Of a stretch of 64,000 nt of DNA, positions 56,027 through 62,619 are shown piece after piece. The position numbers and the translations under genes were made by a program. Source of the DNA: Spirochaetia bacterium (GTDB lineage: Bacteria > Spirochaetota > Spirochaetia > SZUA-6 > Bin103); assembly GCA_965208575.1 (NCBI GenBank), contig CBDBOV010000006.1:544001-608000 (forward strand), read 5' to 3'. Under the pieces are notes generated by a model. It did not search any database. It worked only from the letters and a program-made list of their open reading frames with translations, and was not told where the DNA came from. Position 1 is the first letter of the stretch; every line of letters starts with the position of its first letter.

Positions 56027-56950
56027 TTACTCGTGCTCGCCAGTCAGGGTCGGCAGGACGTCCGCCAGGGTGATGCCGAAGTCGTTTTCCTGGGTGGCTT
56101 GAAAGACCGGGAGAGACAGCTTGTTGGGAGCCGCGTTCCCTCGAAAACCGCCGAGACGTTGCAATTTTGCCATGGTGGGACTGCCGGCCACCCGATGCCA
56201 GTCGATCGGCGTCGCCGGATCGCAGGTGCGCAGCGATACCGCCACGCGCCGATCCTCGGTCGTCTGCGTCGCGTGGATGGTGTTGAGGCTCAGCAGCAGC
56301 AGGTCGCCGGGTCCCACCTCCGGAATCTCCATGACCTCCTCAATCTCCAGGTCCTCGTCGTGATGGTAGACCCCGCTCCAGTCGGACAGGTACAACGTCC
56401 CGCCGTCGCGCAGCGAGTACAACCTGCTCGCGCCCGAGCGCCGGCAGAGGTTGAACACTCGCGGCGACTTCTCGCGCAGCCGATCCCAGGGAATCACGCG
56501 CAGCCCCGCCTCCGTGCGGGACGGCTTGACCAGCGGAATCCAGTAATTGAGATGAGTCGGATTGTACTCGGTCAGGAAGAAGTGATCGTGATCCTGATGC
56601 CAGGAAAGATCGGTGACCGGCGTCTGGAGATAAAGGATCTGATAGAGCGCGGCCCTGGCTCCGGTCACGCCGCCGGCGAATTCTTCCATCCGCGGACGTA
56701 TCCGGTGGAAGGTTTCCCTTCGTCCCATTGCGTTGGCACGCAGAGCTCCGCTTTGACCGGCAACCGGCTTGTCGCCAAGGTGCTGCGCCGCATGCCTGGT
56801 TTTCGTCGGGGGCGAATAGTCCGGGCTGGTATCGAATTCTGCCACCAGGAAGTCGATCTCGTCACGGTTCAGAAACCCCGGGACAACGCAGAAGCCCCGT
56901 TCGTCGAGCGCGGCTGCAATTGCCTTGAAGTCGGCCTTGAAATCGGTCAT
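56027..56950 (-). CDS. PhyH-like Fe(II)/2-oxoglutarate dioxygenase
   Basis: LDERGFCVVPGFL, WHQDHD, NYWIPL, GPGDLLL...IHAT...RVAVSLR. Confidence 0.8.
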   Translation of the reverse strand: MTDFKADFKAIAAALDERGFCVVPGFLNRDEIDFLVAEFDTSPDYSPPTKTRHAAQHLGDKPVAGQSGALRANAMGRRETFHRIRPRMEEFAGGVTGARAALYQILYLQTPVTDLSWHQDHDHFFLTEYNPTHLNYWIPLVKPSRTEAGLRVIPWDRLREKSPRVFNLCRRSGASRLYSLRDGGTLYLSDWSGVYHHDEDLEIEEVMEIPEVGPGDLLLLSLNTIHATQTTEDRRVAVSLRTCDPATPIDWHRVAGSPTMAKLQRLGGFRGNAAPNKLSLPVFQATQENDFGITLADVLPTLTGEHE

Positions 56951-58195
56951 GAGTATTTCGCTCCCTGTATGTCATAACCGTAGTTTGCCTTGACCGCTTC
57001 CGGCCACTCCTCATAGGGGACGTGGAACCCGAGGGTGGCCGTCCCCATCGTCCCCTGCGGTGTCGTCACGCCCAAACCACCATAGAGGCCCTCGTTGATT
57101 GCCTCGTTGTCTATTGCCAACTGCATCGCCTGACGCACCCGGATGTCATCAAAGGGCGGCTTGCGCACATCCATGGCAGCGGACGTATTCGATTTACCGA
57201 ATATGGTGGTCGTGATCACGAGTTCAGGGTCGGTCCGCTGGAGGCTCTCTGCGTCGTCCCTGTTGAGAGCTTCGCCAATACCCCCAAGAGAGCGACCTTA
57301 CCGGTCCGTAGTGCCGCAAGTCGTGTAGACGCATCTGGCATGTATAAGATCTTCAGCTCGTCTGAGTAAGGCAGACGGTTCCCCGGGAACTTCTCATCGT
57401 CTTTCCAGTAGTTGAGATTCTTGGTATAGGTGCGGCTGCTGCCCTCCACCCAGTCGACCAGCTCATAGGGCCCGGTGCCGACCAGGTTTCTCCAATCCTG
57501 AACGCTGCCATGCTCATTGATTACCTCGGGGGGATATATCCGGCCACCCTCAAAGGAGTCGTAAAGAAAGACATCCAACGCGGTGAAGGATATCTGCTTC
57601 AGCTTGACAACAAACGTATGCCCGTCGGCCGCCTCTATCGATTCAATAGGCAAGCTGGTGATAAGGCCGCCGTTCGGGCTCTTCTCGGTGAAACCGCTGC
57701 CCAGGGCCGTAAGTCGGTGAAAGTTGAACACAACGTCATCGGCAGTGAGCTCGCGTCCGTTCATCGGCGCCTTGTCGTGCCAGTGAATGCCCGCGCGGAT
57801 TTTGAATATTATGGTCAGGGGATCCGGTGTTCGTAGCTCTCCGCCAGGTGTGGTTTAACTACGTCTCTAGGAGTATACCACCCATGGTTAAAGGGCCATT
57901 TGTCTCTGGGTATTGCCCAATCCACCATGCCGAGTTTCTCGAGAACGGCGCCGCGTTCCAGGTATTGTGACCCCCACCACGAGTCAAGGTGCGCCGGTTC
58001 CCGCGCATAAGGCAAAACAAGTTGCCCACCATATTGTGGCGCGTTGATCATCTCGCCGGTGGCCGGGTCGAGCACCATTTCCTGCTCGCTCGGCGCGGCC
58101 GCCGCCTCGCCTTCGCTGGCCGGGCCGGCAAACGCAGCGGCCGCCACCAGCGCGAACGCCAGTGCAATCGACATTAGTGTAGAAGCTCCTTTCAT
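56947..58195 (-). pseudogene. Third family 5 SBP gene, frameshifted twice and 3'-truncated
   Basis: MVLDPATGEM..PQYGG, GTGPY, PFDDIRVRQAM over three ORFs (breaks near 57830 and 57270); similarity ends at YGYD (~56970). Confidence 0.88.
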
Positions 58196-58283
58196 TGTGC
58201 TTCTCCCTTACGTGTCGGGCACGGATGTGCCCCGTTTCTGGAAATGCCAGCAACGCTGGACGCTGTGGTCTGGTGGAAACGCA

Positions 58284-58361
58284 GCCGACGCGGTCGGCCG
58301 TTGGACGCCCGGACGCATGGCGGCCGACGTGGTCGGCCGTTGGAAGCTCGGATGCGTGGCG
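58284..58361. repeat. Two tandem 39-bp units, each starting with a GCCGAC-NNN-GTCGGC hairpin
   Basis: 58284-58322 and 58323-58361, about 85% identical. Confidence 0.8.
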
Positions 58362-58682
58362 GGTATGCGCCGCGCGGAAAGAGGACGCCGCGCTCAGCAC
58401 CGGCGGACCGGTTGGCTACTAGCGCGCGGTTAGTGAGCGGTGAGCGGTGGTAGCTCGCTACACATCAGGACGTCATCTTGCCAAATTCGCCGGAGCGGCG
58501 CAAGTGGCCGTAATGTTGGGGTGCGAACGCGGAAAGCGGTACGCAGGTCATTGCAGCATGGTCTACCCGCTCGATGGCACGGATGCGAACATCCGGGGAC
58601 TGGCGAACTGGATCGGCGGCGCGATGGAGCGGCCTTACACCGACCGCCGGCAGTCGGAGCGCAGGCTTCCACGACGGCGCGG

Positions 58683-60551
58683 TCACGCCTCAGCCCGCTC
58701 GATTGCCGCCTGCGATCCGACGGTGCGCCCGTGTTCGTTCGGATCGACCGCGGAGACCGGAGCGCGCCGGGCTTCATTCGGCACACTCTCGGCGTGAGCA
58801 TGGCGCTGAGCGTGGCGCAACCTGTGGTGCGCTCGACAATGGAGCGTCAGATTCCGCGGCACCGCGCCGCCGCCGAGCGCGAACGGCACGATGTGGTCGA
58901 TCTCCAGCCGATAGCGGGAGCCGCAGCGCCGCCCGCTGCGGCGGTCGACATAGGTGCAACAACCCTGGTCGCGGCGCCACACCTCCCGCTTCACCGCTAC
59001 CGGGATGTACCGCGACCGGGAGCCCGGCACCGCGCCGAGGCTGCGCAACGCGGCAAGGTGCCGCTCCACTGCCGGCGAACGCACCGCCGGCCCCACCGCG
59101 CCATGCCCGGCGGCGTACGCCAGCCGCTTCGCCGCCGACTCCGAGCGCCGGACCGTGTCCCGCACCGGCGCGGACTTCGGGCCGCCGCGCTCGGCCTCCG
59201 TGTCCCGCTTCGCCGCCGAAACCGCCGGACCGGTGCCGTTCCGTGCGACCGCGTGCGGCCTGCGCCCGGGTTGGGCTTCGGATCGGCACTTCGCTGGCGA
59301 AGTGGTGTGCGCACCGCTGTTCGGCGCCGCCGCCCGTGACGCGCTGCCGTACCCGGTGACCGAGTGGCGCTTCGCCGGCGAAGTGGTGTGCCCCTCTCTG
59401 TCCCCCACCGGCGCGGACTCGTTCGGCGCCGAATCGGAGCAGCGGACAATATCCCGCACCGCCGTGGAGTTCGTTTCGCCATGCTCGACCTCCGCAGGCC
59501 GCTTCGGGGCCGAGGGACCGGGCAGGTCATTCGCAGCCGCCGACTTCGCGCCGCCGCACGCGTCCTCCGCACGCTGTTTCGCCGCCGACACCGCCCCACC
59601 GTCGCCGTCCTGCGTCACCGCACGCGACGCCCGACCGAGTTCGGCCTCGGCGTGGCGATTCGCCGGCGAACCGTTGAGCTCACCGCTGACCGGTAGCGCC
59701 GGCGTGCTCGCGGATCCTGCGCCGTCGACCGAGCCGCCACCGCCCGTACGCCGCACACGCGGCGGCCGAGCCGGGTCGTAGCGGTCCAGGCCGTCGCGCA
59801 CCAGCCGCGCCACCAGCCCGCCCAGCGTCAGGTGCGGATCCGTGTGCGACAGCAGCATCAGCAGCTTCTCCAGCCCGTGCCGGCACTCCGCGTCGACCGC
59901 CGCCTTCAACTCCCAGCGCCCGCCTCCGAGCGCGCGCAACCGGTCGCTCGGCTGCGCCAACTCCGGGTCCACCTCGGCCAGCATCTGCTGCACTTCGCGC
60001 GTGCTCTTGCCCGCCGCCTGCCGGACCAGCTTCTCCCGCGCCGCCGCGTCCAGCACCGGCCCGGCTGCCGGTGGCGCCGGATCGTGCTCGCCGCCGCGCG
60101 CCGGCGCCGCCGGTCCCGGGTCGCCCGGTGCGCCGTCACTCGGTGGCGCACCGCCCACGGCGCCACCTGCTCCGGTACTTACCGGCGGGCGGCCCCGGTT
60201 GCGGTCGTTGCGCTCGAACAGGTTCTGCAGTTGCGCCGCGTTGCTCAGGTTCAGCGAGCCGTCCTGCAGCAGCTCACGCGCAGCGCCGGTCCCGGTGCAC
60301 AGCCGCATCGCCTTGATGCGCCGCCAGGCGGCGGCCGCGGTGTAGCCCAGTTCGTGCACGACGTAGTCGAACAGACTGCCATACCCGCGGGTCAGGTGGA
60401 GGCTGCGCGCCTCGATCTCGCGCAGGTGGTCGAGCACCAGGATCTGCAGCGCCTGTTCGTGGCGGGCGAGCCGCCGGGTCTGCGCCAGCAGGAGGTAGTC
60501 GGGCAGCGCGGCGACGGTGGACTAGGGGGTGGGAGACGGCACGGCATCCAT
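58683..60551 (-). CDS. HNH endonuclease with DUF222-like helical N-terminus and repeat linker; TAG at codon 10
   Basis: HLREIEAR.L.L.RGYGSLFDYVVHELGY N-terminus; RYIP..VKREVWRRDQGCCTY...C...IDHIVPFALGG...NL..HCRAHH; ATG 60551, TAG 60522-60524, alternative GTG starts downstream. Confidence 0.85.
59068..59670. repeat. In-frame array of a palindromic 12-bp core with ~81-bp period
   Basis: TTCG(C/G)nG(C/G)CGA at 59128, 59209, 59290, 59371, 59422, 59503, 59578, 59659, plus a partial copy at 59068. Confidence 0.85.
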
Positions 60552-60557
60552 GTCGTA

Positions 60558-60566
60558 AGTATACCA
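60558..60566 (-). promoter_or_regulatory. Extended -10 promoter (TGGTATACT) for a leaderless HNH transcript
   Basis: TGnTATACT ends 6 nt before ATG 60551; no SD. Confidence 0.6.
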
Positions 60567-61042
60567 TGGGATTCAAAATAGCCGATTTTCCCGAGTCCTC
60601 GACGGCGGTGAAACGGCGCCCGGAAGGCCGCGCCACGGGGCGCTGTCGCGGCAACGGAGGCCAAGTCGTTCCGGGGCAGTCGGAGGGACCGCCGCGCGCC
60701 GTAGCGAGCCACCATGAGCCCCGAAAATCGCGTCAAGGGGTGCGCGCAGTTTTTTCGCGATTTTTTCCGTGCTCACGATCTGCCGGGACGGCACGCTGCC
60801 TGGTCCGAAATTCCTGTGGGTCGGCGATGCTCGGGCATCGGTTTTCATCGTCTTCCATATCACGGAGTCACCGTACTGCCTCATGCATCTCACTTTCGGT
60901 CCACGGCTACCGCTTTCGGCGTTCCCACCCTAATGTTGACTGCTCACTGGGTCGCGGGGCCATGCCTGCCGGTGTAGCATGTTACACTCCACGAAAAGGC
61001 GCCGGGCCAACCCCCGAAGCGTCGTCAACGAGGGTCGCAACC

Positions 61043-62619
61043 ATGCGTTCGTTCAACACTGCCGGTCCCGTCAAGCCCGCCAGGCACTATTGCATCCCGC
61101 CGCTTGAGCGCATCGACCTGGACGGGGTCCTTGGGCTGGTGCGAGACGAGCGGCACTTCGTGCTCCATGCCCCGCGGCAGACCGGCAAGACATCCGCGCT
61201 GCTCGCGCTGGCCGAGGTGCTGAACGGGCGCGGCTACCGGTGCGTGTACGTTACCTTCGAGACCGCCCGCACCGCGCGCGACGACGTGCAGCGGGCATGC
61301 GCACGGTGCTCGTCAGGCTGGCCTCGCAGGCGCGGACGACGCTGGATGACGGCTTTCTGGACGACATCTGGCCGGACATTCTGGCGCGCGTCGGTCCGGA
61401 CGAGGCACTGGGTGAAACGCTGTCCCGTTGGGCGCAGGCGTCACCGGGACCGCTGGTGCTGCTGATCGACGAGATCGACACGCTGGTGGGCGATTCGCTG
61501 CTGTCGGTGCTCCAGCAGCTCCGCGCCGGCTACCCAACGCGCCCGGAGCGCTTCCCGCACAGCGTGGTCCTGTGCGGCATGCGTGACCTGCGCGACTACC
61601 GCATGGGCGCCGCCGGCAGCCCGTTCAACATCGCCGCGAAGTCGCTGCGGCTGGGCGACTTCACGCGCGGGCAGACGTTGGCGCTGCTGGCCCAGCACAC
61701 CGAGCAGACCGGCCAGGCTTTCGCACCCGAGGCGCTGGAGGCGGTGTGGACGCAGACCCGCGGCCAGCCCTGGCTGGTGAACGCGCTGGCGTACGGCGTC
61801 TGTTTCGAGAACGAGACGCTGCGCGAAGACCGGTCCCGCACGGTGAGGGCGGATGACATCGCGGCGGTGCGCGAGGAGTTGATCGTGAACCGGGTGACGC
61901 ACCTCGACTACCTGGCCGACAAGCTGCGCGAGGATCGCGTGCGGCGGGTGATCGAGCCGATGCTGAGCGGCACCCACCGGCACGCCTTCACGGACCGCGA
62001 TGTCGGGTACGCGCGCGACCTCGGGCTGCTGGCCCGCGACGCGCCGCTGCGGGTGGCCAACCCGATCTACGCCGAGGTGCTGCCGCGCGAACTCGCGTGG
62101 GTGGCGCAGGAGACGCTGGAGCTGTCGCCGCCGCGCTACGTGAGGGCCGACGGCAGCCTGGACGCGGAGTTGCTGATGGCGGAGTTCCAGGACTTCTTCC
62201 GCCGCCACTCCGAGCACTGGCGGAACCGCTTCGCGTACGAGGAAGCGTGGCCGCTGTTGCTGTTGCAGGCGTACCTGCAGCGGGTGGTGAACGGCGGCGG
62301 CCGCATCGAGCGGGAGTACGCGCTCGGGAGCGGGCGGGTGGACCTGTTGATCGTGTGGCCGCTGGCCGACCGGGTGCAGGAGTTCGTGGTGGAGTGCAAG
62401 GTGGTGCGCGCGCACGACGGGCCCGAGCGCGTGGTGGACGAGGGCGTGGAGCAGACGGCGCGCTACGTGGACCGCTGCGCCGCGGAGGCGGGTCACCTGG
62501 TGGTGATCGACCAGCGGGAGAACCGGAGCTGGGAGGAGAAGATCTCCCGCACCCGGCGCCGCTCGGCGCACCAGCGGCGCGGCGGCGGCGCCGTGCCGGT
62601 AGCGGTGTGGGGGATGTGA
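61043..62619 (+). pseudogene. AAA-like (AAA_35-type) ATPase with C-terminal PD-(D/E)XK domain, 1-bp frameshift
   Basis: MRSFNTAGP, APRQTGKTS in one frame; LLIDEID, REYALGSGRVD, VECK in another; break near 61297. Confidence 0.87.

Follow-up and report, generated by a model that had tools for sequence, protein, structure and literature searches.

Several described systems share features with the locus discussed here. Site-specific DNA binders such as ParB, KorB and SopB recognize inverted-repeat sites (parS, the KorB operator and sopC, respectively); sopC is a tandem array, and in Bacillus subtilis one parS site is located inside the coding sequence of spo0J. Palindromic DNA within open reading frames (ORFs) is also found in Rickettsia, where the palindromic elements are selfish and in frame. 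Arrays of clustered regularly interspaced short palindromic repeats (CRISPR) are non-coding and composed of identical repeats of 23-47 nucleotides (nt), separated by unrelated spacers. Among HNH nucleases, the DUF222-HNH proteins include the REP13E12 repeat family of mycobacteria; to our knowledge, in-frame palindromes have not been reported in DUF222-HNH genes, and the titles and opening lines of abstracts of the literature on DUF222 with HNH do not refer to any. Finally, the term mobile insertion cassette is used, e.g., in PMC4337579. Here, an element is described that combines traits of these systems. It is located in a 64,000-nt stretch of the genome of a Spirochaetia bacterium (assembly GCA_965208575.1, contig CBDBOV010000006.1, positions 544,001 to 608,000; referred to as the window, with positions counted from its first letter) and carries, on the minus strand, a gene for an HNH nuclease. 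The part of this gene that encodes a disordered linker contains an array of eight short, palindromic cores, which are kept by selection on the DNA sequence itself, not on the encoded peptide. The coordinates of all features are collected in Table 1.

A first-pass annotation of the window described the array as a 12-base-pair (bp) core recurring at 59128, 59209, 59290, 59371, 59422, 59503, 59578 and 59659, i.e., with gaps of 81, 81, 81, 51, 81, 75 and 81 bp. All eight positions and all gaps were recovered, every core is in frame with the minus-strand ORF 58683..60437, and the palindrome TTCGCCGGCGAA is exact at 59371 and 59659, as is ACTTCGCTGGCGAAGT at 59288. The peptides encoded by the cores, for which S(A/P)(A/P)K had been proposed, are GSPAN, VSAAK, PSAPK, DSAPN, TSPAK, TSPAK, VSAAK and ESAAK. 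The conserved unit, however, comprises 14 nt rather than 12; it is the inverted repeat CTTCG-N4-CGAAG, read as xCT TCG SCN SCG AAG, which encodes [T/A/P]S[A/P][A/P]K. One of the eight 14-mers in the window is a perfect palindrome (59370-59383) and three more pair at six of seven positions. With up to two mismatches, the 12-mer is found 17 times in the window, seven of these within 59128-59670, while 100 dinucleotide shuffles of the window yielded on average 6.92 matches and at most 13, i.e., none reached 17. The core at 59503 is too degenerate to appear among these matches, yet it codes for PSAPK in frame.

The spacers between the cores are diverged copies of one another. For the pair that had been singled out as related (59140-59208 and 59434-59502), 50 of 69 bases are alike, where shuffled spacers reached 0.52 on average and 0.62 at most; the remaining spacer pairs in the window display identities of 0.46-0.65. 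Because the units have diverged to 46-72% identity, Tandem Repeats Finder is blind to the array and found no 81-bp repeat in 58600-60600, and the periodicity becomes visible only via the cores. In appearance the array resembles a CRISPR array, with short palindromic cores at regular spacing and diverse sequence in between. Identification as such was rejected, however, because the 14-nt cores are degenerate, translated in one frame and confined to one gene, their spacing is not fixed in relatives, and the spacers are interrelated without any sign of acquisition. With the Rickettsia-type elements the locus shares palindromic DNA that is tolerated inside an ORF, but there is no sign here of a mobile 81-bp unit. 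Decayed protein tandem repeats, including H1-like repeats of the type S/TPxK, are similar in having units of about 27 amino acids (aa), a short conserved peptide and a variable number of units; in contrast, the conserved entity in the present family is a nucleotide string that includes the synonymous sites and has palindromic borders.

The evidence for selection on the nucleotide sequence is found in the codons. Other genomes contributed 207 cores in 65 ORFs. Of these cores, 187 have T as the wobble base preceding Ser, 203 use TCG for Ser, 202 have G at the end of the third codon and 193 use AAG for Lys. The genome from which the window was taken harbors 81 cores in 23 ORFs, with the wobble T in 61 and TCG in 79. 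As a background, a crude set of 3206 ORFs outside the family in this genome has T in 6.9% of wobble positions and TCG in 32% of Ser codons, while ACT accounts for 3.9% of Thr, GCT for 5.0% of Ala and CCT for 4.9% of Pro codons. Also when the identical peptide is encoded by an ORF outside the family, the wobble T is found in only 6 of 43 cases and TCG in 13 of 43. Folded domains of the family served as a further control (alignment columns with a conserved residue of degenerate codon; 61 columns, 25 relatives): the most common codon had a mean share of 0.71, T was found at the wobble position in 66 of 1471 cases, and the top codon ended in T in none of the 61 columns. Synonymous sites in the family genes are therefore well mixed except inside the cores.

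The borders of the conserved block are those of the palindrome. In a profile of 82 cores, the information content rises at the second base of the codon preceding Ser, which is C in 78 of the 82, and drops to nothing directly after AAG, i.e., the edges coincide with those of the 14-nt palindrome and not with codon edges. The residue before Ser is T, A or P (S once), all of which have C at codon position 2, and it is this C that pairs with the G of AAG. Counted over 109 linkers, the motif is present in frame 218 times without arm mismatches, 181 times with one and 128 times with two, while the other two frames contain 2-7 occurrences each; the few out-of-frame cases are located in frameshifted copies. 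Genome-wide, the motif is found 77 times, in 44 cases in or near family genes, while thirty controls with permuted arms yielded 0-39 occurrences.

In addition, the two arms change jointly. At 410 sites (84 ORFs, 20 genomes) the pair formed by positions 3 and 12 is T-A in 293, C-A in 32, T-G in 19 and C-G in 15. The C-G sites, which are found in four genomes from two clades of the tree, read CTCCG-N4-CGGAG and code for TPAPE, TPTSE, TPTPE, APTAE, TPTAE or APAAE. Here, Ser is replaced by Pro and Lys by Glu, i.e., the charge is reversed, while neither the inverted symmetry nor the rare codon ending in T is lost, which is hard to reconcile with selection at the level of the peptide. It is the near-invariant synonymous sites, the palindrome-bounded block and the joint arm change that together establish selection at the nucleotide level. 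The first-pass annotation had suggested a role of the DNA or RNA from the presence of a palindrome in a diverging linker, and the synonymous sites in the arms bear this out: synonymous changes that freely break the palindrome, named there as grounds for abandoning the idea, are the opposite of what was found. Its alternative of SPxK-like peptide repeats does not, on its own, explain the codon data.

Two other sources of the pattern were considered and rejected. A general mutational drive toward quasi-palindromes is not apparent, as 600 ORFs outside the family contain 2000 perfect 5-4-5 inverted repeats, compared to 1884-2015 (mean 1963) after synonymous shuffling. An antisense ORF on the plus strand (58954-59781, 275 aa, with a recurring RF[A/G][A/G]E) is open over the whole array, but it explains neither the wobble T nor TCG because the third positions of the sense and antisense frames coincide; it is read as the usual open antisense frame of a high-GC gene, i.e., an artefact.

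What might read the cores is suggested by models of the N-terminal half of the protein. The full-length AlphaFold2 model is confident only at residues 1-85 and 130-160, and the linker (residues 228-453) is disordered. A model of the N-terminal 250 aa, obtained with 31 sequences, has a mean predicted local distance difference test (pLDDT) score of 74.9 and displays helices at residues 8-110, a disordered insert at 111-150, helices at 159-189 and a strand-helix-helix part at 195-248 (strand 195-205, helices 211-224 and 233-248). A helix-turn-helix (HTH) shape is formed by helix 50-57, a four-residue turn and helix 62-77 (AAAAWRRIKAMR...), where the latter would be the recognition helix. When the models were compared with 48,161 representatives in the PDB using VIA-align, the best matches were DNA-binding domains that bind inverted repeats. 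For the first part these are KorB on its operator (8qa8, Z 5.9-6.7; 1r71, Z 5.2-6.6) and ParB on parS (6s6h, Z 5.9-6.7), followed by SopB (3mkw, 5.4), VirB (3vwb, 5.4) and 1vz0 (5.1); Spo0J is also found among them. The last part matched the ribbon-helix-helix (RHH) protein TraM (3omy_B) with Z 6.5 and a root-mean-square deviation of 1.8 over 48 of 50 residues, and other RHH structures (3on0, 1q5v, 2rbf and 3no7, Z 4.7-5.9), including NikR, PutA and the pCXC100 ParB. Foldseek returned rows for the HTH part at E 2-10 only, eight of the 11 belonging to the ParB/KorB/SopB-type group, and for the RHH part 3no7 with a probability of 0.69 at E 3.4. For both parts, the fold is a lead, not a result.

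The likeness to the ParB-parS, KorB-operator and SopB-sopC systems is based on these structural matches, which were solved on inverted-repeat sites, and extends to the 14-bp length of the sites, their two-fold arms and their multiplicity. In contrast to ParB, no N-terminal CTPase-like domain is seen here by Pfam, and unlike in all three systems the putative DNA-binding half is fused to a nuclease and the sites are found in the DNA encoding its own linker; in addition, the fold similarity is weak (Z 5.2-6.7). The DUF222-HNH proteins are similar in having a helical N-terminal region and a C-terminal HNH domain and in being encoded by multicopy genes. However, DUF222 (PF02720) was not detected by Pfam, neither at E <= 1 in the 31 N-terminal sequences nor at E <= 0.1 in the whole protein; in a protein-language-model atlas the N-terminal half is placed beside a cluster named after DUF222 (score 0.95), 12% of whose members carry PF02720.

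A link between the putative recognition helix and the cores is found in their covariation. The W and K positions of the helix AA[W]RRI[K]AMR covary with position 3 of the half-site, and 95 ORFs were sorted by the residue at the Trp position. With W (59 ORFs, 317 sites), the pair 3-12 is T-A at 269 sites, C is found at position 3 in 11 and C-G does not occur. With G or A (19 ORFs, 67 sites), T-A is found at 11 sites, C-A at 19 and C-G at 15, while with Y (8 ORFs, 39 sites) the distribution is T-A 17, T-G 11, C-A 5 and C-G 2. Where the residue is Q (8 ORFs, 29 sites), 19 of the sites have position 3 as G or position 12 as C. This pattern is as predicted by coevolution of a reader and its site; shared descent could also give it.

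The nuclease gene is part of a transposon-like element of 2412 bp (58519-60930) with imperfect, 23-bp terminal inverted repeats, where the similarity among copies has sharp limits at window positions 60930 and 58519. The target-site duplications are perfect (8-9 bp) in the window copy and in three others, and imperfect in two copies. At 10 places in the genome the same terminal repeats bound a unit of 1438 bp, and at two places one of 570 bp. The 1438-bp unit (G000:C3:50315-51752, L059, and nine more places) is an insertion sequence (IS), the ends of which are common to the HNH element, and it encodes a 434-aa protein that matches the ISKra4 transposase NF033572 with 198.8 bits (cut-off 205; E 1.6e-58). 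The 570-bp units (C4:140189-140758, L060, and C5:154972-155541) are shortened derivatives of this IS. The core motif was found neither in the 1438-bp IS nor at the cassette ends. The HNH element has no transposase of its own, its sole long ORF being the HNH gene, and as such is not itself an ISKra4 IS. With ends shared with an IS, a target duplication, a passenger gene and no transposase, it has the properties of a mobile insertion cassette and is most aptly regarded as a non-autonomous cassette, bounded by ends of ISKra4 type and carrying HNH as its passenger; presumably, it is moved by the ISKra4-type transposase. Known mobile insertion cassettes are similar in each of these respects, i.e., 23-bp terminal inverted repeats, 8-9 bp duplications, absence of a transposase and IS-shared ends. 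The present family differs in that its passenger is an HNH nuclease with a predicted DNA-binding half of its own, in that the HNH family reaches dozens to about 100 matches per genome, and in that the same ends are not found in distant genomes, where the repeated unit is little more than the gene.

Regarding these more distant loci, the distant subfamily in the window genome ends in a related terminal repeat, while the 23-nt terminal repeat (up to six mismatches) was not found beyond the G001 and G002 loci among the relatives' loci that were scanned, and a scan of 12 other loci for any flanking inverted repeat yielded nothing convincing. In other genera, the similarity between copies ends close to the gene. 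In genome G007, two copies (L036 and L056) have the same 13-nt string at both ends in direct orientation, and no inverted repeats were found, which hints at another mode of insertion. The upstream region of the window cassette also contains a dispersed repeat of about 88 nt (60798-60885). A blastn search of the genome gave 68 rows for this repeat, mainly outside HNH elements, and the copy at C5:802102, which is collinear in other respects, lacks it; the repeat resembles a miniature mobile element.

The cassette gene belongs to a large paralogous family. The window genome (6.5 Mb, 67% GC, six contigs) contains 76 family matches, among these about 14 close copies with an N-terminal identity of at least 78% and about 15 copies of the distant subfamily with 41-51% identity. 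Matches were found in 21 of 24 genomes of the same taxonomic family, with a maximum of 102 in one genome, while in 45 other families of the class none of the 146 genomes sampled was matched by an N-terminal profile. Within the genomes sampled, the family is thus known from one bacterial family only, in metagenome-assembled genomes (MAGs) labelled Spirochaetaceae. A large protein search yielded 712 relatives at E <= 0.001, the few named ones being annotated in Spirochaetaceae MAGs as HNH endonuclease or as hypothetical protein. Every close copy is built alike, with a helical N-terminal half, a linker that varies in length and an HNH domain, and [T/A/P/x]S[A/P][A/P]K occurs between 2 and about 10 times in the linkers of the family.

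The period of 81 bp, which had been regarded as a property of the array, is not conserved, as the spacings in relatives vary from 30 to 321 bases, always as a multiple of three. The number and order of units, for which a comparison among paralogues had been proposed, are not fixed. The window copy has the order D-O-G-C-B-E-F-A, while the closest copies lack whole units (C-B-E-F-A, C-E-F-A and D-O-G-C-B-I-A, the last with one core mutated), some unit types are found at other positions in more distant copies, and one contig of public run X1 has an extra 81 bases at 59204>59124. Units are thus gained and lost at the cores, as in any tandem repeat, and probably also exchanged there. In the distant subfamily, the proteins of which comprise about 800-1000 aa (G000:C3:338218-341130, C2:502758-505511 and some dozen further loci), a second long disordered insert is present, as is a separate 24-aa tandem repeat, TTAAPKL. 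The DNA of this repeat (ACT GCG GCG CCG AAG) is the core string with one arm base changed. Several family copies are decaying: of the paralogues G000:C6:625866-627740 and C6:1249503-1253876, one has a stop codon inside the HNH motif and the other a linker split by a foreign insert of about 2 kb.

The cores are thus 14-bp inverted repeats, each with two 5-bp half-sites CTTCG around four central bases, and they are located in the sole stretch of the gene that leaves the protein sequence almost unconstrained, i.e., the disordered linker between the N-terminal half and HNH. In the most likely explanation, the cores would be cognate sites for a two-fold symmetric dimer of the family's own N-terminal part, a reading that we hold at slightly less than an even chance. 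The reader module would be the HTH of ParB/KorB type and/or the ribbon-helix-helix, and the predicted bound duplex is of the CTTCGGCGCCGAAG type. Every cassette would contain 2-9 sites for the very protein that it encodes, all within the gene for this protein, so that the product would recognize its own element. Binding of the cores by the element's own protein may, in the simplest version, result in negative feedback, where bound protein would block transcription of a potentially toxic nuclease; alternatively, the nuclease may be recruited to copies of the element, leading to exchange, gain or loss of units between copies. A wider reading, which includes also the mobility, is that this is a cassette-borne nuclease with its own sites encoded as a second message in the linker DNA, where the sites and the helix evolve together and serve recognition of the element's own copies. 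Each lineage would in this case recognize its own copies and either throttle their expression or direct cutting and copy-to-copy exchange. This wider reading is more tentative, and we consider it somewhat less probable than its negation.

A number of observations weigh against recognition of the cores by the family's own protein. The groups with G or A and with Y at the Trp position are each monophyletic, so that the independent changes in helix and site are few, perhaps two to four, and shared ancestry can mimic coevolution of the two; in addition, the ribbon strand changes with the same clades, for which reason the module responsible cannot be named. The Z-scores of 5.2-6.7 for the N-terminal fold are under the level that the tool calls safe for helical domains, and Foldseek found no match to the N-terminal models at E <= 0.001. 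At the sites themselves, the most common center, GCGG (SAAK), is not two-fold symmetric, and the near absence of its rotated equivalent CCGC (SPPK) shows a peptide-level constraint as well. Some branches of the family have few or decayed cores, and the window copy has only one perfect site of its eight. Finally, sites within its own gene would be dangerous for a nuclease unless cleavage is conditional.

Among the alternatives, binding of the palindromes by a different protein, be it a regulator of the host, a partner whose gene is located elsewhere or the ISKra4-type transposase, is unlikely, even if the nucleotide-level evidence fits it equally well, the cassette depends on a transposase in trans and the helix-site covariation may be clade history only. 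A motif of a host regulator would be expected at other loci too, whereas the present motif is concentrated in the family genes, is absent from the IS and the cassette ends, and travels with a gene whose N-terminal half looks DNA-binding.

We regard as quite unlikely that the cores form hairpins or cruciforms in mRNA or single-stranded DNA, where they would be signals for processing, pausing, replication or transposition. The arms are complementary and change jointly, as a stem requires, and in one of four 30-nt windows tested as single-stranded DNA the core hairpin is formed (-5.9 kcal/mol, z -2.81). However, the other three windows show no such hairpin, and the linker RNA is no more stable than shuffled sequences (-294 compared to a mean of -301.5 kcal/mol, z +1.03), with cores that do not pair with themselves. 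The stem would comprise only 5 bp, and an Rfam search of 58300-61200 at E <= 1 found no match. In addition, the C-A intermediates, which cannot pair in RNA, outnumber the wobble-compatible T-G ones, and the four central bases are constrained, which is needless for a loop.

No more probable than hairpins is a role of the cores as microhomology or recombination hot-spots, maintained by concerted evolution among copies and resizing the linker. The loss of whole units at core boundaries in close paralogues, the different positions of some unit types in different copies and the longer contig of run X1 all agree with such a role. Unequal crossing-over, however, needs no special sites in any tandem repeat, within-genome gene conversion cannot keep one 14-mer across 20 genomes of two genera, and neither the inverted symmetry nor the joint change of the arms is predicted.

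An ordinary peptide repeat (H1-like S/T-P/A-x-K or a short linear motif), with codons retained by descent or by quasi-palindrome template-switching, is very unlikely. In its favor, the motif is always found in one frame, Thr is preferred before Ser, SPPK is avoided even if equivalent as DNA, and the spacers look like a decayed 27-aa protein repeat. However, descent cannot hold the rare ACT, GCT and CCT in 187 of 207 cores while all flanks and the first base of the T-ending codon diverge and synonymous sites at invariant residues are mixed. In addition, the combined Lys to Glu and Ser to Pro change keeps the palindrome and not the peptide, and synonymous sites throughout the genome show no surplus of perfect short inverted repeats.

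The protein itself is a member of the HNH endonuclease family. The HNH domain PF01844 was identified in a Pfam profile search at aa 504-543 with 25.5 bits (curated cut-off 21.4; E 1.5e-5), and the translated window ORF contains the D-H, N and H-H residues, i.e., the catalytic His-Asn-His, as well as the flanking Cys residues. NCBIfam gave sub-threshold matches of the HNH part only, and a PDB sequence profile search with an alignment of the whole protein gave only two weak matches, both in the HNH region (E 0.12 and 1.2). The NCBIfam matches were to IscB (24 bits, cut-off 175) and Cas9d (12, cut-off 375); as there is neither a RuvC domain nor a guide RNA, an RNA-guided nuclease was considered and dropped. 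The first-pass annotation had the gene start at ATG 60551; this ATG is indeed in frame, but because of a TAG at 60524-60522 the frame cannot be read through from it. In paralogues the position of the stop codon is occupied by Trp in the context 'P-x-x-W-STVAALPDY', and base 60523 is C, which yields TGG, in every contig covering it from public runs X1, X5 and X7. The window copy has therefore probably either lost its first 38 residues or become a young pseudogene; if started at GTG 60437, the protein would be without its first long helix. At the other end of the window ORF (58683-58760), about 64 nt are absent from closely related copies, and owing to these extra nt the C-terminal tail is longer and different.

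Table 1. Features of the HNH cassette and its surroundings, in window coordinates
Feature	Position	Strand	Remark
Array of eight in-frame 14-nt cores, CTTCG-N4-CGAAG type	59127..59671	-	in linker-coding DNA
Individual cores	59127-59140, 59208-59221, 59289-59302, 59370-59383	-	14-mers
Individual cores, continued	59421-59434, 59502-59515, 59577-59590, 59658-59671	-	14-mers
Disordered linker	59079..59756	-	aa 228-453 of the 584-aa ORF; AlphaFold2 pLDDT <50
HNH nuclease ORF, present state	58683..60437	-	584 aa from GTG
HNH catalytic motif	58809..58928	-	aa 504-543 of the 584-aa ORF; Pfam match and residues
In-frame TAG, TGG (Trp) in paralogues	60522..60524	-	tenth codon, counted from the ancestral ATG (60551)
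Helical N-terminal module with weak ParB/KorB/SopB-like HTH similarity	59940..60521	-	holds disordered insert
Ribbon-helix-helix-like module	59772..59939	-	residues ~195-250 of the N-terminal model
Putative recognition helix AAAAWRRIKAMR	60303..60338	-	assigned from the model
8-bp target-site duplication TAATGTTG, beside the cassette 3' end	58511..58518	.	same 8 bases at 60931-60938
Terminal inverted repeat on the 3' side of the gene, GGGTGCGAACGCGGAAAGCGGTA	58519..58541	+	copy similarity ends exactly here
Terminal inverted repeat on the 5' side of the gene, GGGTGGGAACGCCGAAAGCGGTA on the minus strand	60908..60930	-	
Second copy of the 8-bp target-site duplication TAATGTTG	60931..60938	.	
Dispersed repeat of ~88 nt, resembling a miniature inverted-repeat transposable element	60798..60885	.	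inserted in the cassette upstream region; outside the array

The DNA adjoining the cassette (window 56900-58200, and many other places in the genome) forms a large paralogous set of its own, and the minus-strand ORFs beside the cassette resemble, by eye only, solute-binding proteins of ABC transporters. Public contigs that hold the window stretch or parts of it originate from runs labelled sponge, marine or coral-reef metagenome. In one run from an RNA library (X20), contigs cover the conserved domains but leave most of the linker uncovered; for a multicopy family, contigs at 90% likeness do not tell expression from lack of expression, nor would an 81-nt RNA be visible in them.

From the above discussion, it is seen that the element is composed of known kinds, i.e., site-specific binders with palindromic arrays, mobile insertion cassettes and HNH nucleases, in a combination that we have not seen described. 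The layout was not found in the literature on HNH endonucleases with ISKra4, on DUF222 with HNH or on HNH endonucleases and transposases of sponge spirochaetes; with bioRxiv supplements and subscription journals outside the literature covered, this speaks only weakly for a true absence.

Should the element's own protein bind the sites, the family would offer a clean natural case of dual coding, where a disordered segment is tolerated mainly since its DNA carries regulatory or recognition sites. It would also yield a specificity pair, CTTCG with Trp and CTCCG with Gly or Ala, for DNA reading by small HTH or RHH modules. Beyond this family, rare codons that are strongly conserved in a disordered region can be used to flag DNA signals hidden within genes. 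For these Spirochaetaceae-labelled MAGs, whose close DNA matches are found in sponge-metagenome runs, a nuclease-carrying cassette present in dozens of copies would be added to the known mobile elements, and recognition of the cores would explain why the linkers of the family keep one odd peptide.

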